Shown here: piece by piece, positions 1 to 8,410 of the stretch | How the letters are laid out: every line of letters begins with the position of its first letter | How positions within the stretch are numbered: the first letter of the stretch is position 1 | From: a virus | Taxonomy: Duplodnaviria > Heunggongvirae > Uroviricota > Caudoviricetes | Direction: 5' to 3' (one strand) | IMG/VR virus record: IMGVR_UViG_2690316318_000015 | DNA: 8,410 nt | Notes under the pieces: model-generated | Seen by the model: the letters and a program-made list of their open reading frames with translations, nothing else | Databases searched by the model: none | Told to the model about the DNA's origin: nothing | Translations under genes and position numbers: made by a program

Positions 1-458
1 GTGTCCGCCCCATAAACATTCATCGAAAACATTTGAACAATATGACCACTTGGTAACTGAAACCAGTTTTTAAAAAAAAAAAATGCAGACAGGGAATATA
101 AACCTTCACGGGAATCATAATCAGTCGTCATATAGTTAGACGTATTATCAGAAACAGTTTCTGTCGGTCTGGTAACCAGACGATAAGAGCCAGTGGTTGG
201 TGATCTGACCAGACCAAAACTTTCAACCAGAGTGGCTTTTTGAAAGCTTAATAATCCCCGACCACTGTCAGCTCCACGCCCGTCATCCCAGCCACGAATA
301 AACTCACCGCGTAAATCAGGTAATTTATTTGTTGGATAAGCCTTTGCCAGTTCCGGGTATTCTTCAGCAGAAAATGCCGCACCGTTGCATTTCAGCCAGC
401 CTGTTGGCGGTGTGACTGAAGGCCATGGAACAGGCACACCAACAGGTAATGCAGAGCC
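1..458 (-). CDS. Tail-fibre variable C-terminal segment (Sv1), silent copy next to pin copy 1; 3' end runs off the window start
   Basis: Minus-strand translation from the crossover site reads ...[66 protein letters not shown]...FGLVRSPTTGSYRLV...KNWFQLPSGHIVQMFSMNVYGADT, resembling remembered Mu S / P1 S / e14 Stf variable parts. A fortuitous ATG in the pin-upstream region (about 510-512) is in frame. No stop within the window. Confidence 0.55.
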
Positions 459-484
459 TTCTCCCAAACCAACGTTTATGAAAA
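459..484. other. pix-type recombination crossover site, copy 1 (TTCTCCCAAACCAACGTTTATGAAAA), 50 bp upstream of pin copy 1
   Basis: 26-bp imperfect dyad (half-sites TTCTCCCAAACC and TTTTCATAAACG around a central AA) in the position and form expected for Hin/Gin/Cin/Pin sites. The left half continues into a tail-fibre variable segment, the right half into the pin leader. Confidence 0.7.
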
Positions 485-533
485 TGCAGAAATAACGGCT
501 AACTGGCATCATCTCTGGTTTTTATTCAGAGGG

Positions 534-1094
534 ATGATCATGCTTATTGGCTATGTACGCGTGTCAACAAATGACCAGAACACCGATTTGCAACGTAATG
601 CACTGAACTGCGCGGGATGTGAGCGGATTTTTGAGGATAAAATCAGTGGAACTAAGTCCGACAGACCAGGACTGAAAAAACTGCTCAGGACATTATTGGC
701 AGGTGACACGCTGGTGGTCTGGAAACTGGACCGACTGGGGCGCAGTATGCGGCATCTTGTCGTGCTGGTGGAGGAGTTGCGCGAACGAGGCATTAACTTT
801 CGTAGTCTGACGGATTCAATTGATACCAGTACCCCAATGGGGCGCTTTTTTTTTCATGTGATGGGTGCCCTGGCTGAAATGGAGCGTGAACTGATTGTTG
901 AACGAACAAAAGCTGGACTGGAAGCTGCTCGCGCACAGGGACGAATTGGTGGACGTCGTCCCAAACTTACACCAGAACAATGGGAACAGGCCGGACGATT
1001 AATTGCATCAGGAGTTCCTCGCCAGAAGGTGGCGATCATCTATGATGTTGGTGTGTCAACTTTGTATAAGATGTTTCCTGCAGGGGATAAATAA
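534..1094 (+). CDS. pin: Serine-recombinase DNA invertase Pin (Hin/Gin/Cin/Pin family), copy 1
   Basis: 186-aa ORF; MLIGYVRVSTNDQ (catalytic Ser region), LVVWKLDRLGRS, GINFRSLTDSIDTSTPMGRFFFHVMGALAEMERELIVERT and a C-terminal helix-turn-helix are family hallmarks. GAGGG lies 5-9 nt before the second ATG (540), so the true start may be there (184 aa). Confidence 0.92.
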   Translation: MIMLIGYVRVSTNDQNTDLQRNALNCAGCERIFEDKISGTKSDRPGLKKLLRTLLAGDTLVVWKLDRLGRSMRHLVVLVEELRERGINFRSLTDSIDTSTPMGRFFFHVMGALAEMERELIVERTKAGLEAARAQGRIGGRRPKLTPEQWEQAGRLIASGVPRQKVAIIYDVGVSTLYKMFPAGDK

Positions 1095-1200
1095 AGTTAA
1101 AGTCACTTTGTGTACAAAAGAAAATAAAACAACAGCAACTTGTTGCAATTTTATCAATAAAAGTAGTATTGTCGTAAAAAATTGATTAAAGATTAATATT

Positions 1201-1576
1201 ATGCATGTTTTTGATAATAATGGAATTGAACTGAAAGCTGAGTGTTTGATAGGTGAAGAGGATGGTGTTTATGGTCTAATCCTTGAGTCGTGGGGGCCGG
1301 GTGACAGAAACAAAGATTACAATATCGCTCTTGATTATATCATTGAACGGTTGGTTGATTCTGGTGTATCCCAAGTCGTAGTATATCTGGCGTCATCATC
1401 AGTCAGAAAACATATGCATTCTTTGGATGAAAGAAAAATCCATCCTGGTGAATATTTTACTTTGATTGGTAATAGCCCCCGCGATATACGCTTGAAGATG
1501 TGTGGTTATCAGGCTTATTTTAGTCGTACGGGGAGAAAGGAAATTCCTTCCGGCAATAGAACGAAACGAATATTGA
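1201..1576 (+). pseudogene. mcrA: mcrA 5' fragment (first ~125 codons), then the ORF reads through antisense tail-fibre sequence to a stop at 1623
   Basis: First 125 residues identical to the full-length 277-aa ORF at 3649..4482; identity ends abruptly at 1576/1577. The remaining 15 codons are antisense of the tail-fibre segment. Confidence 0.85.
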
Positions 1577-2133
1577 CTGACCAGACCAAAACTTTCAACC
1601 AGAGTGGCTTTTTGAAAGCTTAATAATCCCCGACCACTGTCAGCTCCACGCCCGTCATCCCAGCCACGAATAAACTCACCGCGTAAATCAGGTAATTTAT
1701 TTGTTGGATAAGCCTTTGCCAGTTCCGGGTATTCTTCAGCAGAAAATGCCGCACCGTTGCATTTCAGCCAGCCTGTTGGCGGTGTGACTGAAGGCCATGG
1801 AACAGGCACACCAACAGGTAATGCAGAGCCTTCTCCCAAACCAAGGTTTTCGAGAGCCGTTTTCACCGTGCCATCCGATTTGATATCGCCAAACGGATTC
1901 TTGCGGCTTAACAGCAGCGCACGAAGCGCGGTAAGCAGCTGGTCATGCCGCCCCTTCTCCAGGCTGGCACCGGATGCCTCCACCACGCTGCAGAGTTCTT
2001 CCTGCAACATGTCAAAGTAGTCATCATCCAGATCGGTGGCAGGTGTGCCGGTCTGGGGGTTACCACGGGTAAAACCGTTCTTACCCGCGCCGAACTTATC
2101 CTTCTGCGCGGTTTTCGTGTCTATACGATGCAT
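1399..2133 (-). CDS. Chimeric tail-fibre ORF: constant N-terminal part (2133..1857) joined across a pix site to the first ~84 codons of variable segment Sv1 (1856..1577), then antisense-mcrA read-through (1576..1399)
   Basis: N-terminus [46 protein letters not shown]... is the start I associate with e14 StfP-type tail fibres. The crossover site encodes ...ALENLGLGE, followed by [51 protein letters not shown]. Homology to the Sv1 copy at 205..458 stops at 1577. Confidence 0.6.
1831..1856. other. pix-type crossover site, copy 3 (TTCTCCCAAACCAAGGTTTTCGAGAG), inside the tail-fibre reading frame
   Basis: Shares the TTCTCCCAAACCAA half with sites 1 and 2 in the same orientation; the other half continues into the tail-fibre constant part. 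Confidence 0.65.
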
Positions 2134-2136
2134 GGA

Positions 2137-2320
2137 TTACTCCGGATATTTAAAAATTACGTAGGTATGCGAAGGGCAGAGTTTGTTAAGCACACACTCG
2201 ACAACGGTGTCGCCCCAGATACGCAGTGCGGAATCACAGGGATCGCCACATGTCATCCAGGTGGTGTTGGTGGCGGCTGGCATGTTGACCTGCCAGTAAT
2301 ACCGCCATTCCGGCGCATTC
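2137..2320 (-). other. Possible 3' end of the phage tail gene upstream of the tail-fibre gene; very uncertain
   Basis: Minus-strand frame ...[61 protein letters not shown] ends one codon before the tail-fibre ATG. No recognisable motif; called from position only. Confidence 0.25.
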
Positions 2321-2569
2321 ACATCTTTCTGATTCTGCCTGTTGAATAAGTTCTTCATGTGATGGTTGAGGTATTTCAGCCCATGTGGGAAAACCATTTA
2401 CCCCTGCAACTCGGATTTTCCCTTGTGGCGGTTCCGCCATATATTTTACAGAAATGTTATCAGGAATATCTAATGCATCAGCGGGCCATGTTCCATTTAC
2501 TTCATAAGTATTTTTTAAATTAACAGCATAAAATGCATTTTCCGAAGGGGAATAAATATATTGATTCAT
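2234..2569 (-). pseudogene. Tail-fibre assembly chaperone (Tfa) gene, N-terminal ~82 codons only (2569..2324); the rest of the ORF is unrelated sequence
   Basis: AGGAAG Shine-Dalgarno then ATG directly after the Sv2 stop. Residues 60-81 (...[23 protein letters not shown]) resemble the conserved mid-region of P2 G / Mu U / lambda Tfa; the next 29 codons do not look Tfa-like. Confidence 0.5.
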
Positions 2570-2570
2570 A

Positions 2571-2960
2571 TTATCTTCCTATTGCGATAATCATAGTTCC
2601 ATACAAACCATTTCCGGTTGATACTTTTAAGGTTACTGATGTCCTTGTTGTCGTGTACCCCATAAGTTTAAAGGTCGGAGCAGCCGTTAATGTGCCATCA
2701 GACCATAAGGCACTAACAGCAAGTGCACCTGAAGGAAATGCAATAGGGAAATTACCAGTAGTTCCGTTAGTGTCCGCCCCATAAACATTCATCGAAAACA
2801 TTTGAACAATATGACCACTTGGTAACTGAAACCAGTTTTTGCCAGATGGAAATGCAGACATATCTGGTATCTGATTTTCTCCTGTTCCCACATTCCGTTT
2901 TGCCGCTTCTCCCAAACCAACGTTTATGAAAATGCAGAAATAACGGCTAACTGGCATCAT
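2571..2960 (-). CDS. Tail-fibre variable C-terminal segment Sv2, silent copy next to pin copy 2 (variable part 2571..2906; leader 2933..2960 comes from the pin-upstream region)
   Basis: Translation MMPVSRYFCIFINVGLGE-AAKRNVGTGENQIPDMSAFPSGKNWFQLPSGHIVQMFSMNVYGADTNGTTGNFPIAFPSGALAVSALWSDGTLTAAPTFKLMGYTTTRTSVTLKVSTGNGLYGTMIIAIGR; the C-terminus is typical of Mu/P1/e14 tail-fibre tips. Shares about 30 residues with the Sv1 copy at 1..91. Confidence 0.65.
   Translation of the reverse strand: MMPVSRYFCIFINVGLGEAAKRNVGTGENQIPDMSAFPSGKNWFQLPSGHIVQMFSMNVYGADTNGTTGNFPIAFPSGALAVSALWSDGTLTAAPTFKLMGYTTTRTSVTLKVSTGNGLYGTMIIAIGR
2907..2932. other. pix-type crossover site, copy 2 (TTCTCCCAAACCAACGTTTATGAAAA), 50 bp upstream of pin copy 2
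   Basis: Identical to site 1 and in the same orientation. Confidence 0.7.
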
Positions 2961-2981
2961 CTCTGGTTTTTATTCAGAGGG

Positions 2982-3542
2982 ATGATCATGCTTATTGGCT
3001 ATGTACGCGTGTCAACAAATGACCAGAACACCGATTTGCAACGTAATGCACTGAACTGCGCGGGATGTGAGCGGATTTTTGAGGATAAAATCAGTGGAAC
3101 TAAGTCCGACAGACCAGGACTGAAAAAACTGCTCAGGACATTATTGGCAGGTGACACGCTGGTGGTCTGGAAACTGGACCGACTGGGGCGCAGTATGCGG
3201 CATCTTGTCGTGCTGGTGGAGGAGTTGCGCGAACGAGGCATTAACTTTCGTAGTCTGACGGATTCAATTGATACCAGTACCCCAATGGGGCGCTTTTTTT
3301 TTCATGTGATGGGTGCCCTGGCTGAAATGGAGCGTGAACTGATTGTTGAACGAACAAAAGCTGGACTGGAAGCTGCTCGCGCACAGGGACGAATTGGTGG
3401 ACGTCGTCCCAAACTTACACCAGAACAATGGGAACAGGCCGGACGATTAATTGCATCAGGAGTTCCTCGCCAGAAGGTGGCGATCATCTATGATGTTGGT
3501 GTGTCAACTTTGTATAAGATGTTTCCTGCAGGGGATAAATAA
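2982..3542 (+). CDS. pin: Serine-recombinase DNA invertase Pin, copy 2 (identical protein to copy 1)
   Basis: Same 186-aa translation as 534..1094; sits in the canonical position between a tail-fibre variable segment and mcrA. Confidence 0.92.
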   Translation: MIMLIGYVRVSTNDQNTDLQRNALNCAGCERIFEDKISGTKSDRPGLKKLLRTLLAGDTLVVWKLDRLGRSMRHLVVLVEELRERGINFRSLTDSIDTSTPMGRFFFHVMGALAEMERELIVERTKAGLEAARAQGRIGGRRPKLTPEQWEQAGRLIASGVPRQKVAIIYDVGVSTLYKMFPAGDK

Positions 3543-3648
3543 AGTTAAAGTCACTTTGTGTACAAAAGAAAATAAAACAACAGCAACTTGTTGCAATTTT
3601 ATCAATAAAAGTAGTATTGTCGTAAAAAATTGATTAAAGATTAATATT

Positions 3649-4482
3649 ATGCATGTTTTTGATAATAATGGAATTGAACTGAAAGCTGAGTGTTTGATAG
3701 GTGAAGAGGATGGTGTTTATGGTCTAATCCTTGAGTCGTGGGGGCCGGGTGACAGAAACAAAGATTACAATATCGCTCTTGATTATATCATTGAACGGTT
3801 GGTTGATTCTGGTGTATCCCAAGTCGTAGTATATCTGGCGTCATCATCAGTCAGAAAACATATGCATTCTTTGGATGAAAGAAAAATCCATCCTGGTGAA
3901 TATTTTACTTTGATTGGTAATAGCCCCCGCGATATACGCTTGAAGATGTGTGGTTATCAGGCTTATTTTAGTCGTACGGGGAGAAAGGAAATTCCTTCCG
4001 GCAATAGAACGAAACGAATATTGATAAATGTTCCAGGTATTTATAGTGACAGTTTTTGGGTGTCTATAATACGTGGAGAACTATCAGAGCTTTCTCAGCC
4101 TACAGATGATGAATCGCTTCTGAATATGAGGGTTAGTAAATTAATTAAGAAAACGTTGAGTCAGCCCGAGGGCTCCAGGAAACCAGTTGAGGTAGAAAGA
4201 CTACAAAAAGTTTATGTCCGAGATCCGATGGTAAAAGCTTGGATTTTACAGCAAAGTAAAGGTATATGTGAAAACTGTGGTAAAAATGCTCCGTTTTATT
4301 TAAATGATGGAAGCCCATACTTGGAAGTGCATCATGTAATTCCCCTGTCTTCAGGTGGTGCTGATACAACAGATAACTGTGTTGCCCTTTGTCCGAATTG
4401 TCATAGAGAATTGCACTATAGTAAAAATGCAAAAGAACTAATCGAGATGCTTTACGTTAATATAAACCGATTACAGAAATAA
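3649..4482 (+). CDS. mcrA: McrA, methylcytosine-directed type IV restriction endonuclease (HNH nuclease), full length
   Basis: 277 aa, the length of E. coli K-12 McrA, and the N-terminus matches my recollection of it. C-terminal HNH motif CENCGKNAPFYLNDGSPYLEVHHVIPLSSGGADTTDNCVALCPNCHRELH. AT-rich relative to pin, sits next to pin as in e14. Confidence 0.9.
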   Translation: MHVFDNNGIELKAECLIGEEDGVYGLILESWGPGDRNKDYNIALDYIIERLVDSGVSQVVVYLASSSVRKHMHSLDERKIHPGEYFTLIGNSPRDIRLKMCGYQAYFSRTGRKEIPSGNRTKRILINVPGIYSDSFWVSIIRGELSELSQPTDDESLLNMRVSKLIKKTLSQPEGSRKPVEVERLQKVYVRDPMVKAWILQQSKGICENCGKNAPFYLNDGSPYLEVHHVIPLSSGGADTTDNCVALCPNCHRELHYSKNAKELIEMLYVNINRLQK

Positions 4483-4715
4483 AATTGTTTATTAAAGTCA
4501 CATTTAAGACGTAATACCCTACAGGGTAAAAATTTTCTCTGATCTTAACTTCTGCAAATGTTAACTGCTATTTTTATGCTAAAAATGGTTATCAAAACTC
4601 AAAAACACATGTTTATAATCAATGAGTTATAGAAATGCTAAGGGCTAATGAGTTATATGCAAATTAGTAAAATTATGTTGCTATCTCAAATAGTTACGAT
4701 TTAGTCATCTAACTA

Positions 4716-4829
4716 ATGCTGCGCCATATGGGTTGGACTGAAGCAGCTGACCTGATTGTTAAAGGTATGGAAGGCGCTAAACTGCTGAAATGTTCAGAGT
4801 TTGGTGATGCGATCATCGAAAATATGTAA
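4716..4829 (+). pseudogene. icd: Displaced 3' end of icd (icdC-like fragment) marking the prophage/chromosome junction
   Basis: Translation [37 protein letters not shown] matches the remembered C-terminus of E. coli Icd. No upstream icd sequence; followed by a hairpin terminator. Confidence 0.75.
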
Positions 4830-4852
4830 TTACCACATGTGTTAAATATTAT

Positions 4853-4880
4853 AACGGGCGTATAACACGCCCGTTGTTTT
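4853..4880 (+). terminator. Rho-independent terminator (icd terminator)
   Basis: 9-bp perfect stem AACGGGCGT / ACGCCCGTT, 5-nt loop, then GTTTT; 24 nt after the icd-fragment stop. Confidence 0.6.
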
Positions 4881-4962
4881 ATGATGATGTAAAATCTTCC
4901 CCAAAACTTCCCCAAAACTGGCTATTTTCTATGCTGTTTTGATATCTACGATAACCCGGTAT

Positions 4963-5895
4963 TTACAGAGTTTCCTCAAAGAATGGAGCTAATACTGAAA
5001 TCGCTTCAGCCACATAGGCTTTGCCGTCATAGAGGTCCATATGGTTAGCGCCTTCAACAATGTGATAGCGTTTATCCTGACTTGATGCTCGATCGTACAG
5101 GTCGTCACTCATCCATTTACTTCCTGCCAGACTGCCCGCCACAATCTGCATCGGCTGAGTCAGGTACACTTCCGCCATATGGTAAGCATCATAGGTAATC
5201 ATCTGGTTAAGGCTGCGCAAAGTAGCGTAACCCGGTGCTGTTGGATACTGCGCGCGAGAGGTGTGGTAATACTCCCAGGCCTGACGCAGTTCTTCGTTCG
5301 GCGCATCGGACTCTTTCATTGGCGCCAGTGGCATAATGGCGTATTCTCCGCTGCTAATATCGCTGGTTCGGGCGTTTGAACCCGCTTCAATGTGTGGCAG
5401 AGCATCAATAGATTTCACATTGTTTTCCCAACCATTGCGGAACATCGAACCAATATTGACCGCACTAACGGTGCCGATAGCCTTGATGCGGCGATCCTGA
5501 ATTGCAGCATTGGCTGTATATCCTGCACCAGCACAAATTCCCATCGCACCAATTCGGGCATTGTCGACATAAGAAAGTGTTGTCAGGTAATCAATTACGG
5601 CACTGACGTCTTCAGTACGAATGTATGGGTTTTCTAACTGACGCGGCTCGCCGCCGCTTTCACCTTGATAAGATGCGTCATAAGCAATAGTGACAAATCC
5701 CTTTTCCGCCAGTTTTTCGGCATAGGTTCCGGCCGTTTGCTCTTTAACGCCCCCACCAGGGTGAGATACCACAATTGCCGGATACTGACGGGTTTCATCA
5801 AATTGGGGAGGGAAATAGATCACAGCAGACAAAGAGATGGTTGGATTATTGCTGTTAGTGAAGCTGACTTTATTATTCATCATTCTGTTCCTCAT
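4963..5895 (-). CDS. Alpha/beta-fold hydrolase (dienelactone-hydrolase / S9-peptidase-like) with a likely Cys nucleophile
   Basis: 310-aa ORF; probable start at the second ATG (about 5883, 306 aa) which has an AGGA Shine-Dalgarno. VVSHPGGG oxyanion-type motif and nucleophile elbow GAMGICAGAGY (G-x-C-x-G), with a downstream EGANHMD His motif. Size and pairing with a 299-aa LysR gene recall K-12 ycjY/pgrR, but I cannot confirm that from memory. Confidence 0.8.
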   Translation of the reverse strand: MRNRMMNNKVSFTNSNNPTISLSAVIYFPPQFDETRQYPAIVVSHPGGGVKEQTAGTYAEKLAEKGFVTIAYDASYQGESGGEPRQLENPYIRTEDVSAVIDYLTTLSYVDNARIGAMGICAGAGYTANAAIQDRRIKAIGTVSAVNIGSMFRNGWENNVKSIDALPHIEAGSNARTSDISSGEYAIMPLAPMKESDAPNEELRQAWEYYHTSRAQYPTAPGYATLRSLNQMITYDAYHMAEVYLTQPMQIVAGSLAGSKWMSDDLYDRASSQDKRYHIVEGANHMDLYDGKAYVAEAISVLAPFFEETL

Positions 5896-5982
5896 GGCGT
5901 TGCCGGTTCGTTTTAACGGCTGGTGATATCACTATAGATATTGATCATTAAGTTGATTAGACCCAAAATCATGATTGGACCT

Positions 5983-5996
5983 ATCATTTAAATGAT
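5983..5996. promoter_or_regulatory. Perfect 14-bp palindrome ATCATTTAAATGAT in the divergent hydrolase/LysR intergenic region; candidate LysR-type regulator binding site
   Basis: Self-complementary and AT-rich, about 25 bp upstream of the LysR start, in the position where LysR regulators usually bind their own divergent promoter. Confidence 0.35.
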
Positions 5997-6020
5997 TAAT
6001 AGATTGTATAGAGATACTGA

Positions 6021-6919
6021 ATGAAGCGTGAAGAAATCGCTGATCTGATGGCATTCGTCGTCGTTGCAGAGGAGCGTAGCTTCACTCGCGCAGCAGTCCG
6101 CTTGGGCATGGCGCAGTCAGCTTTAAGCCAGATAGTGCGTCGTATAGAAGAACGATTGGGATTGCGGCTCCTGACGCGAACCACGCGTAGCGTTGTGCCA
6201 ACTGAAGCGGGCGAACATCTTTTATCTGTTCTTGGCCCGATGTTGCATGACATAGATTCAGCCCTGTCATCCCTGAGTGAGCTGCAGAATCGCCCATCCG
6301 GGACAATACGTATTACTACAGTAGAACATGCAGCAAAGACGATACTGCTACCAGCCATGCGCACATTCCTGAAATCGCATCCTGAAATTGATATTCAGCT
6401 TACCATTGATTATGGTTTGACCGATGTCGTTTCTGAACGTTTTGATGCAGGTGTCCGTCTGGGAGGGGAGGTGGATAAAGATATGATTGCCATTCGAATC
6501 GGGCCTGATATACCAATGGCTATTGTTGGCTCACCGGATTATTTTTCCCGCCGAAGCGTTCCAACGTCAGTGTCACAATTAATAGACCATCAGGCCATTA
6601 ATTTGTATCTTCCCACATCGGGTACAGCGAATCGCTGGCGATTAATACGTGGTGGACGTGAGGTTCGTGTTCGCATGGAAGGTCAGCTTTTACTGAATAC
6701 GATAGATCTGATCATTGATGCTGCAATTGATGGGCACGGATTAGCGTATCTACCTCATGATCAGGTTGAGCGGGCGATTAAAGAAAAAAACTGATACGTG
6801 TTCTGGATAAATTCACACCAGACTTACCCGGTTATCACCTGTACTATCCACACCGTCGGCATGCTGGCTCGGCATTCTCCTTATTTATAGATAGGCTGAA
6901 GTATAAAGGCGCTGTTTAG
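6021..6919 (+). pseudogene. LysR-family transcriptional regulator, interrupted by a +1 frameshift in an A7 run (6784..6790); intact length would be 299 aa
   Basis: N-terminal HTH (ERSFTRAAVRLGMAQSALSQIVRRIEERLGLRLLTRTTRSVVPTEAG) and co-inducer-domain layout. The ORF stops at 6794, but the +1 frame continues LIRVLDKFTPDLPGYHLYYPHRRHAGSAFSLFIDRLKYKGAV* to 6919, which is a typical LysR C-terminus. Confidence 0.75.
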
Positions 6920-7504
6920 TTTTGCTTGATGATACGTTGATTTCATTTTTCCCTTAACGTGTTCACAGTTCCTTTCGACGTTTTAGTTATTTTTTCTTCT
7001 TCATACAATGGCGGCAATTACTTTCTTTTATTTTTATTATCGTGGATGTTAATACCAGAACTTCTGACCCTACGATGCATGTTTTTTGTATATTATCTGT
7101 ATCAGGCAAAGAGTGGCGCAAATTGTGGATGGTGGGGGAGTATAACCCGGAAGAGTTTACATTTTTGAACGGTATTTTTTGTAATGTAAAGGAAAATCTG
7201 TGTCGGAATGATCGCTATTTGGGTGCAGATGGCAGAAGGAGTGGGGAAATAAATAATAATTCTACGATGATATTATTTGGTTGTATCGGTTAGTGATGAA
7301 CTCAGGTCGCCAGATGCTGCACTATCTCCGGCGTGGATGATGCTTTCAGTCTCAGACTTACTGACATCGCTCAATGGGATTCTTTCGTCCTCAGTGAGCG
7401 CATCGAAACCATAACTAACCAATTGAATAGCCTGCAAGAGTATGTGAGATCACAGTGTTCATATTAGAAAAGTCTTATCATAAGATTTTTTATATGGATG
7501 CATT

Positions 7505-7891
7505 ATGTCTCAATACGCTCGTGCCGCTTTAATTGCTTATAATTTGGTTGCCGATAAATCAATGTCTCCTCGTGAGGCTTGGGACGCCGCTGTTGCTAAG
7601 GTTACAAAAAGCGAATCCTCAAGAAAGAAGGGATGCCCAAGGGCAACGTTTCTCGCCTTGGCGGATTGCGGTTATCTGAAGAATGTAGAACCACAGTATG
7701 GGGAGAAAAAAGGCGGTAAGTTGTACCAAAGGGCGGTTGAAGTTGCGAATCTGATTCTTGATTTACCCGGAATTAGCAAAGCTGAGTTAGTTGATAAAAC
7801 TTGCTATAAAGACGGGCAAGGGTCTTATGACATTGTGCTAACACTCGCTCAGTGCGGATTTCTCCAACGCCCTCAGCAAGATATTAAGTGA
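7505..7891 (+). CDS. Hypothetical protein, 128 aa, no family recognised
   Basis: Clean ORF with even codon usage, followed 8 nt later by a hairpin and T-tract. Two related Cys-containing motifs (FLALADCGYL and LTLAQCGFL) about 65 residues apart suggest an internal duplication. No clear Shine-Dalgarno. Confidence 0.5.
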   Translation: MSQYARAALIAYNLVADKSMSPREAWDAAVAKVTKSESSRKKGCPRATFLALADCGYLKNVEPQYGEKKGGKLYQRAVEVANLILDLPGISKAELVDKTCYKDGQGSYDIVLTLAQCGFLQRPQQDIK

Positions 7892-7898
7892 TTTATGG

Positions 7899-7921
7899 CC
7901 TCGCTGTTAGCGGGGTTTTTT
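7899..7921 (+). terminator. Rho-independent terminator after the 128-aa ORF
   Basis: 6-bp stem CCTCGC / GCGGGG (one G-U pair), loop TGTTA, then TTTTTT. Confidence 0.5.
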
Positions 7922-7930
7922 CATATCTGA

Positions 7931-8062
7931 ATCTCACCACCGGATGCACTGACTGGCTTCGTGGCTGTTTTCAACAGTGAGGAGGCATCGTGGCATCTCG
8001 TTGAAGACCCGCGGGGTAAGACTGTCAGTGGCGTGGCTTCAGGTAATGCGCTATCCCTTTAA
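7931..8062 (+). pseudogene. Remnant of a lambda-type tail-fibre assembly gene (tfa), internal ~43 codons only
   Basis: Frame reads [43 protein letters not shown], close to the remembered lambda Tfa mid-region (...[39 protein letters not shown]...). No start codon and the C-terminal half is missing. Confidence 0.65.
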
Positions 8063-8064
8063 AA

Positions 8065-8081
8065 GGGAGGTTATACCTCCC
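8065..8081. terminator. Hairpin GGGAGG-TTATA-CCTCCC containing the acetyltransferase stop codon; possible bidirectional terminator
   Basis: Perfect 6-bp GC-rich stem flanked by AAAA upstream and TTTCTTT downstream on the + strand. Confidence 0.45.
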
Positions 8082-8320
8082 TTTCTTTGCAAACGTTAAC
8101 TTTCTTAGTATAGCAAATCGAATTTGAGGGTATATCCTTATTTACAAATGTAAAAGCACCAATTTTTACATTATCACCTATAGTAATGTTATCTGCGATA
8201 ATACAGGAGTTCGCTCCAATATTTACATTGTCACCAATGCTAATTCTATTAGTATTGTTGTTTTTTAAGCCAATTGTTGTGTTTTGCCTTATATTGAAGT
8301 TTCTACCAATTGTGGCATAT
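8071..8320 (-). pseudogene. Hexapeptide-repeat (left-handed beta-helix) acetyltransferase, 3' fragment of ~83 codons, 5' end removed by the IS insertion
   Basis: Minus-strand translation YATIGRNFNIRQNTTIGLKNNNTNRISIGDNVNIGANSCIIADNITIGDNVKIGAFTFVNKDIPSNSICYTKKVNVCKEREV* has the [LIV]-G-x-x-x-x periodicity and a typical C-terminus. Very AT-rich. No start codon; the frame ends at the IS junction. Confidence 0.65.
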
Positions 8321-8410
8321 TGATCCTACCCATGTAATATGGACACAAGCCTAAGCGAGGTTCTGATTTTCAAATTGTTCCGGACTGAGACCGCCACACC
8401 AACTGTGCCG
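8321..8410 (-). mobile_element. Right end of an IS3-family element (terminal inverted repeat plus the last codons of transposase orfB); the rest lies beyond the window
   Basis: Reverse complement ...CAGTTGGTGTGGCGGTCTCAGTCCGGAACAATTTGAAAATCAGAACCTCGCTTAGGCTTGTGTCCATATTACATGGGTAGGATCA closely matches the remembered right end of IS3 (a few mismatches). Terminal TGATC...; minus-strand frame ends ...SWCGGLSPEQFENQNLA* with stop at 8351..8353. Confidence 0.7.

Follow-up and report, generated by a model that had tools for sequence, protein, structure and literature searches.

Apparent duplication of pin and the 5' end of mcrA in an Escherichia albertii e14-like prophage: very probably a product of scaffolding

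The window analyzed here, the whole stretch of 8,410 nucleotides, contains the invertase gene pin and the beginning of mcrA twice, and we asked whether the second copy belongs to the bacterial chromosome or to the way in which its sequence was put together. The identity previously noted between 459..1576 and 2907..4024 falls inside an exact repeat, 458-1576 = 2906-4024, of 1,119 bp as written in the window. Because base 1576 is an N in the deposited record, the sequenced identity is 458-1575 = 2906-4023, or 1,118 bp. Chance is far too weak to give an exact repeat of 1.1 kb, and two further exact repeats follow the same pattern (205-472 = 1577-1844, 268 bp; 1-71 = 2770-2840).

The gene and site identities given in the preliminary description (pin, mcrA and the crossover sites) were correct; the Pfam domains of the two genes are Resolvase and HTH_7 for pin and HNH for mcrA (Table 1). 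The mcrA piece of the first copy is without the HNH domain and gave no Pfam match; many assemblies of E. albertii and of E. coli encode the exact full-length McrA protein. The stretch at the right attachment end aligns to the 3' end of the intact icd in the prophage-free loci L003 and L005 and also to the remnant of icd that E. coli carries, and the strain of origin has an e14-like prophage within icd. Rfam at gathering thresholds returned no match anywhere in the window.

Table 1. Features of the window, left to right
Feature	Position	Strand	Evidence or remark
Stray fragment of Y-type (Gp53-like_C) tail-fibre C-terminal module	1..91	-	= L012 5265-5355
X-type (tail-collar) variable C-terminal module of tail fibre	92..457	-	Pfam Collar; collinear with L004 4995-5360, state a; final 113 bp missing
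Crossover site copy 1, pin-side sequence CTTCTCCCAAACCAACGTTT	458..477	.	
pin invertase gene, first written copy	540..1094	+	Pfam Resolvase 1.9e-51 (catalytic domain) and C-terminal HTH_7 4.1e-14; 100% = 2988-3542
mcrA first 375 bp, first written copy	1201..1575	+	= 3649-4023
Scaffold joint 1	1576		N in deposit, A in window; comparison with deposited record
X module first 253 bp, repeated	1577..1829	-	= 205-457; = reverse complement of L012 3569-3821
Crossover site copy 2, tail-fibre-side sequence CTTCTCCCAAACCAAGGTTT	1830..1849	.	
Constant N-terminal part of tail-fibre gene (stfP/ycfK-like)	1850..2133	-	100% = L012 3265-3548; 96-97% identity to E. coli ycfK
ymfQ (Mu Gp48-like), last 186 bp	2137..2322	-	Pfam Phage_Mu_Gp48 below curated cut-off, as the piece is only a fragment
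Scaffold joint 2	2323		N in deposit, A in window; comparison with deposited record
Y-cognate tail-fibre assembly gene, 5' part (82 codons)	2324..2569	-	Pfam Caudo_TAP; collinear with L012 from 4819
Y-type variable C-terminal module of tail fibre	2571..2905	-	Pfam Gp53-like_C; L012 5066-5400
Crossover site copy 3, pin-side sequence	2906..2925	.	
pin invertase gene, copy in normal context	2988..3542	+	Window 2324-8320 vs L012 99.95%
mcrA full-length (HNH endonuclease)	3649..4482	+	Pfam HNH 2.2e-15
Duplicated icd 3' end and downstream sequence, right attachment end of prophage	4767..4882	+	

The deposited record at the two breakpoints

In the draft Escherichia albertii assembly GCA_001286085.1, the window corresponds to contig CYCK01000069.1 over its entire 8,410 bp. 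Bases 1576 and 2323 alone differ between deposit and window, and these sole two N of the contig coincide with the two breakpoints of the supposed duplication. A single N left at a joint is a convention of scaffolders and gap-fillers, one that the consulted papers on SSPACE and on scaffolder evaluation do not mention. The presence of N at both positions means that no determined sequence ever crossed either joint; continuous determined sequence is absent from both novel junctions. What had been described as a non-homologous junction inside mcrA (1576/1577) is a single-N scaffold joint rather than a sequenced junction, and the same applies to the junction suspected near 2320, which we place at 2322/2324. 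The preliminary description had named the lack of any read across the junctions as the sign of a mis-assembled contig; in effect this is what the record holds, the assembler having had no sequence across either joint. Microhomology and recognizable features are likewise absent at the breakpoints, as expected where extension simply stops. We therefore consider it very likely that the window is not continuous chromosome but a scaffold in which single N placeholders link three contigs, and that the duplication of pin and of the 5' part of mcrA (mcrA') is artefactual. The statement that these genes are present twice holds for the text string and fails for the genome, where the second copy is almost certainly not a real feature.

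Chimeric DNA molecules formed during library preparation or amplification and then faithfully assembled would be in keeping with three joins that are all blunt and link nearby sequences. Any one such molecule is rare and would fall short of the coverage that assembly requires, and their junctions, if read, would be bases rather than N, making this origin extremely improbable.

The left end of the window behaves differently. Bases 1-91 duplicate 2770-2860 save nine bases, 72-80, which are all A where the other copy has GCCAGATGG; the result is a run of 12 A at 72-83 that keeps the length and, in frame, would turn PSG into FFF. This fragment adjoins the X module at 91|92 without any N, and sequence continuous across 91/92 was absent from all 5,426 complete E. 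coli genomes. It is probably a chimeric contig end.

Comparison with related loci

Apart from the first 91 bases, each of the three pieces (92-1575, 1577-2322 and 2324-8320) aligns end-to-end with one of two related loci of normal, single-pin arrangement, L004 or L012, at 99.3-100% identity. L004 and L012 each carry two 20-nt imperfect inverted repeats, 95% complementary and 1,832 nt apart, beside the invertase gene. Pin, a predicted serine invertase, would invert the 1,832-bp segment between the repeats. The related loci occur in two corresponding states: in state a (L004, L021, L022, L025 and L029) the constant head of the tail fibre is fused to the Y module (Gp53-like type), and in state b (L012, L023, L024 and L026-L028) to the X module (collar type).

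The first contig of the scaffold (1-1575) begins with the stray 91-base fragment and reads X-site-pin-mcrA', the state-a arrangement, with window 92-1576 matching L004 4995-6479. The second (1577-2322) reads X'-site-constant head-ymfQ' and derives from state b in reverse, with window 1574-2322 matching the reverse complement of L012 3076-3825. The third (2324-8410) reads tfaY'-Y-site-pin-mcrA-flank, again state b, and its bases 2324-8320 match L012 4819-10816 at 99.95%. Together, the pieces hold three of the four possible segment junctions, drawn from both orientations; in one single-copy locus, a junction of X with pin (state a) rules out a junction of X with the constant head (state b). Only direct copies of the crossover site occur within the window, since another contig holds the left part of the prophage.

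All 15 related pin-bearing loci that were fetched have a single pin, and all 14 related loci with mcrA have one copy of the pin-mcrA 5' region; the earlier remark that canonical e14 has one pin was likewise correct. Neither joint is spanned in the 5,426 complete E. coli genomes, in which the best matches end at window 1574 and 2323, and a 33-mer over 1576 had 0 matches in the viral_contigs scan. A 31-mer from the constant head of the tail fibre was found in one E. coli contig only in the scan of genome_contigs, a collection that does not include the source assembly. Short-read contigs often break at the crossover site: the contig of locus L030 begins within it, and 35 of 92 index blocks with this McrA held no contig longer than 2 kb. 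Exact-protein look-ups of the chimeric open reading frames of 140 aa (1201-1623) and 244 aa (1399-2133) gave no match, probably because these frames hold an N codon in the deposit. Window 4788-8346 recurs at 100% identity in contig L019, which comes from an independent assembly of run ERR137811; on the strength of this match, ERR137811 is possibly the run behind GCA_001286085.1.

Routes to the written structure

An artefactual origin is best explained as follows. The sequenced culture was most likely a mix of cells in both Pin orientations, and cells in both states would have supplied reads backing alternative continuations at each crossover site. Greedy scaffolding with gap extension, of the Velvet, SSPACE and GapFiller kind, would then have set the alternatives in series, with contig edges lengthened one read after another for as long as the estimated gaps lasted and one N left per joint. 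In this way the same reads would have yielded two written copies of pin and of the initial 375 bp of mcrA, and this would account for their perfect identity. The use of these programs is suggested by the single N at each joint, by the style of the accession and by the possible match to an ERR run. SSPACE and GapFiller as used in a Sanger pipeline are greedy, can produce false joins and give joined contigs N gaps (PMC5320598), and GapFiller lengthens the two edges of a gap by single bases, with closure only if the extensions overlap (PMC3446322). As counterpoints, 1.1 kb is a long way for a gap-filler to extend an edge, and the model does not account in detail for the join at 91|92 or for the run of A at 72-83, both of which lack an N.

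We next weigh the possibility that the chromosome truly has the depicted structure, with a segmental duplication of pin-mcrA' and of ymfQ' with the tail-fibre head and with one base unread per junction. On paper, the order and orientation from base 92 can be derived exactly from a state-a locus by tandem duplications of 1,076 and 1,372 bp and two Pin inversions between crossover sites, and read-pair links for this order were presumably available to the scaffolder. Both junctions are N, however, although ordinary reads would cross real ones and a zero-length gap would be closed. A real duplication also predicts the assembly gene tfaX and a complete X module at the left, in place of which we find a third odd join, 91|92, and the overwritten A-run; three or more rare events would have to occur independently within 4 kb, and the structure has no parallel in the 5,426 complete E. 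coli genomes or the 15 related pin-bearing loci. Taken together, these points make a real duplication highly improbable. The specific route of two tandem duplications and two Pin inversions was rejected on the N joints, the extra 91|92 join and the lack of precedent, and a tandem-inversion duplication with remodelling deletions was rejected because it needs still more events. By eye, 7 nt separate the mcrA breakpoint from the centre of a weak site-like stretch, and the X breakpoint coincides with no site centre; action of Pin at secondary sites was also rejected.

The isolate might instead harbor two complete e14-like elements in opposite states, in tandem at icd or with the second elsewhere, such that the scaffold order is wrong and the two pin genes are real. 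Junctions of both states are indeed present in the assembly, and the written copies are 100% identical, as for a recent double lysogen. Yet mixed orientation in one culture accounts for these data with no additional element, and flipping during growth is to be expected of Pin-type switches; a single element is found in all 15 related pin-bearing loci, and the window contains no phage-phage attachment junction. We consider a double element very unlikely. Of the three origins offered in the preliminary description, namely recent duplication, ongoing gene conversion and assembly artefact, the evidence favors the third.

Implications and comparison with known systems

The value of this case is practical more than biological. 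A mixed invertible segment in a culture can lead a short-read pipeline to write a neighboring gene twice, and the conversion of N to A in plain sequence both conceals the gap characters and creates false chimeric open reading frames, here of 140, 244 and 111 aa across 1576 and 2323. Scans for recent duplications need to check the original record for N at repeat boundaries. If the proposed mixture of orientations holds, the e14-like prophage of this E. albertii strain would have had its Pin switch flipping in the sequenced culture.

The artefact resembles the duplication produced by uncollapsed alleles (haplotigs), in that coexisting versions of a locus are both kept, in series, and the shared sequence is doubled perfectly; here, N marks the joints. 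It differs in that the 'alleles' would be two site-specific inversion states in a haploid bacterial culture rather than heterozygous chromosomes, and in that one piece is placed in reverse orientation.

Were two pin genes and four crossover sites true of the isolate, through local duplications or a tandem double lysogen whose real junctions the N joints hide, the two-state e14 tail-fibre switch would become a multi-isomer inversion system. This would recall Min of plasmid p15B and the R64 shufflon, with four crossover sites, two invertase genes and several isomers. The multiple sites of those systems are sequenced and conserved, whereas the extra sites here occur only across N joints in one draft scaffold, and we give this reading very little probability.

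The closest comparison is with e14 Pin of E. coli K-12, a member of the Din family (Hin, Gin, Cin, Pin). Common ground lies in the position in icd, in the gene order, which is that of related single-pin loci (ymfQ, constant head, site, two opposed C-terminal modules with assembly genes, site, pin, mcrA and icd remnant), and in a segment, 1,832 bp long in L004 and L012, that lies between 20-nt imperfect inverted repeats and is found in both orientations among isolates; the pin-mcrA region of the window is 94-97% identical to that of E. coli. The present prophage differs in its host, E. albertii, in the ycjY/pgrR-like genes that lie beyond icd instead of iraM, and in its variable modules, which are a pair of collar-type and Gp53-like sequences. 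A further difference, the three direct site copies in the window, would be an effect of assembly rather than of biology.

Undetermined bases in the source record

The window corresponds to the complete contig CYCK01000069.1 (locus L018) of the draft assembly GCA_001286085.1, annotated as E. albertii in GenBank (PMC8715443), and not to a slice of a finished chromosome. Only two of 8,410 positions, 1576 and 2323, set deposit and window apart: the deposit has N at each, where the window has A. At 1576, the end of the first repeat copy, mcrA sequence gives way to that of X, the collar-type variable tail-fibre C-terminal module, and at 2323 ymfQ ends and an assembly gene begins. The preliminary description had placed junctions inside mcrA at 1576 and near 2320; these positions match the breakpoints, but with N at both in the deposit, sequencing never covered either junction. 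Three contigs, 1-1575, 1577-2322 and 2324-8410, make up the record, which is a scaffold. Scaffolding and gap-filling tools leave a single N where a gap could not be closed. Open reading frames crossing these positions, 1201-1623 (140 aa) and, on the minus strand, 1399-2133 (244 aa) and 2234-2569 (111 aa), are artefacts of the N-to-A conversion.

Self-comparison of the window showed that 458-1576 equals 2906-4024 at each base (1,119 bp), and 205-472 repeats exactly as 1577-1844 in the same pattern. Predicted reading frames and domains bore out the gene identities proposed earlier, namely an invertase written twice, a full McrA and a cut-off McrA copy (see table).

Three pieces from two orientations of one segment

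The pieces were mapped on two normal single-pin relatives carrying the two orientations of the Pin-invertible segment, L012 (GCA_039992795.1, state b) and L004 (state a), which both have 1,832 nt between 20-nt imperfect inverted repeats. State b reads head (the constant N-terminal part)-site-X, tfaX, then tfaY and Y, the Gp53-like_C-type module, on the opposite strand, site, pin and mcrA, whereas state a reads head-site-Y, tfaY, then tfaX and X on the opposite strand, site, pin and mcrA; tfaX and tfaY are the cognate assembly genes. The longest piece differs from L012 by two mismatches and one 1-base gap.

Pieces and genes of the window, with matching regions in single-pin relatives
Feature	Window	Matching region	Content or domains	Assignment
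Piece 1	92-1576	L004 4995-6479	X on minus strand, site, pin, mcrA'	state-a right junction
Piece 2	1577-2322	reverse complement of L012 3076-3821	ymfQ', head, site, X'	state-b left junction, reversed
Piece 3	2324-8320	L012 4819-10816	tfaY', Y, site, pin, mcrA, flank	state-b right junction
Serine invertase pin, 184 aa	540-1094		Resolvase + HTH_7	
Serine invertase pin, second written copy, 184 aa	2988-3542		Resolvase + HTH_7	
mcrA first 125 codons, copy	1201-1575		without HNH domain	
McrA, HNH endonuclease, 277 aa	3649-4482		HNH	

By these alignments, the scaffold carries three junctions, drawn from both states, out of the four that one invertible segment can form. The X-pin and X-head junctions cannot coexist in one single-copy locus, but they can where Pin flips the segment within a culture. 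A double lysogen with two elements in different states, in which both pin genes would be real and the scaffold order still wrong, has a slim chance of being the explanation; pin is single-copy in all 15 pin-bearing loci fetched, and close relatives include both state a (n=5) and state b (n=6).

The 20-nt crossover sites (458-477, 1830-1849 and 2906-2925) are of types that differ by one base, C or G at site position 16, which always travels with the outer flank, on the pin or the tail-fibre-head side. In the Hin/Gin family, exchange occurs at the central AA dinucleotide of the site, and by this analogy the behaviour of the differing base would fit strand exchange at that dinucleotide.

The first 91 bases copy part of the Y module (2770-2860; exact over 1-71 and 2770-2840, again in the pattern of the pin-mcrA' repeat) with nine bases overwritten by A: a 12-A run at 72-83 stands for GCCAGATGG(AAA), leaving the length unchanged, which would turn PSG into FFF in frame. 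This fragment abuts X bluntly at 91|92, and a mismatch follows nine bases later. Run and join are written as literal bases, not N, in the deposit, and none of the E. coli genomes searched spans the join; the fragment probably represents a chimeric contig end or a poor fill of a 9-base gap.

Breakpoints, assembly route and the status of the repeat

Inspection of both breakpoints revealed no microhomology, site-like centre or repeat, unlike the usual leavings of tandem duplication in enterobacteria. Among 5,426 complete E. coli genomes queried with window 1400-2500, no record crosses either joint, and the best matches cover only 1574-2323, the natural ymfQ-head-site-X stretch. Read-by-read extension of contig edges until an estimated gap is exhausted would be expected to leave such featureless breakpoints. 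Large Sanger batches were assembled with Velvet, then SSPACE and GapFiller, both greedy and capable of false joins, with N gaps put between joined contigs (PMC5320598); GapFiller adds single nucleotides to both gap edges in turn and closes a gap only when the extensions overlap (PMC3446322). We infer that GCA_001286085.1 may stem from this pipeline.

A real duplication, with the depicted structure present in the chromosome, is logically possible but very unlikely. Two tandem duplications, of 1,076 bp and 1,372 bp, plus two Pin inversions would turn a state-a locus into the piece order seen from base 92 onward. Such a history needs several rare events, calls for tfaX and an intact X module on the left, neither of which the contig shows, and above all predicts ordinary reads over both junctions, which the assembler evidently lacked. 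Library chimeras, which would have left no N, are a next to negligible source of the joins. The duplicated pin and mcrA start is genuine as text, but almost certainly has no biological reality. Only one biological inference is worth keeping, namely that the culture sequenced probably contained both orientations.

The public contig L030 begins exactly within a crossover site, and in 35 of the 92 index blocks containing this exact McrA, no contig exceeds 2 kb, about the distance from site to attachment repeat. Breaks at this point are thus frequent in short-read assemblies, as a segment mixed in culture would lead one to expect, and this suggests that mixed orientation is widespread among cultures. 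An independent assembly of run ERR137811, probably of the same isolate judging by sequence, includes a contig that begins in the icd repeat and matches window 4788-8346 at 100% identity.

Right flank and relation to the e14 switch

The flank (icd remnant, α/β-hydrolase, LysR regulator, DUF6979 and so on) is the normal icd neighbourhood of E. albertii-type genomes, with or without an e14-like prophage. The genes adjoining icd (4883-7017) share 95% identity with ycjY and pgrR of E. coli, whereas iraM adjoins icd in the fetched E. coli loci L001 and L002, so this neighbourhood differs between the two species. An A7 run at 6784-6790 (A8 in relatives) cuts the pgrR-like LysR-type regulator to 257 aa from 299; at least 10 contigs of other samples encode the same truncated protein, so this is a real lineage allele and not a sequencing error. 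In the E. albertii-type loci L011 (5749-6522) and L008 (5703-6476), a 257-aa GIY-YIG (LEM-3-like) gene on the opposite strand replaces mcrA after pin, and the right end of the e14-like element accordingly appears to act as a variable slot for nuclease genes. A single mcrA follows a single pinE in the K-12-type e14 locus, and what underlies the window is e14's already known Pin/P-segment switch, in this case in E. albertii.
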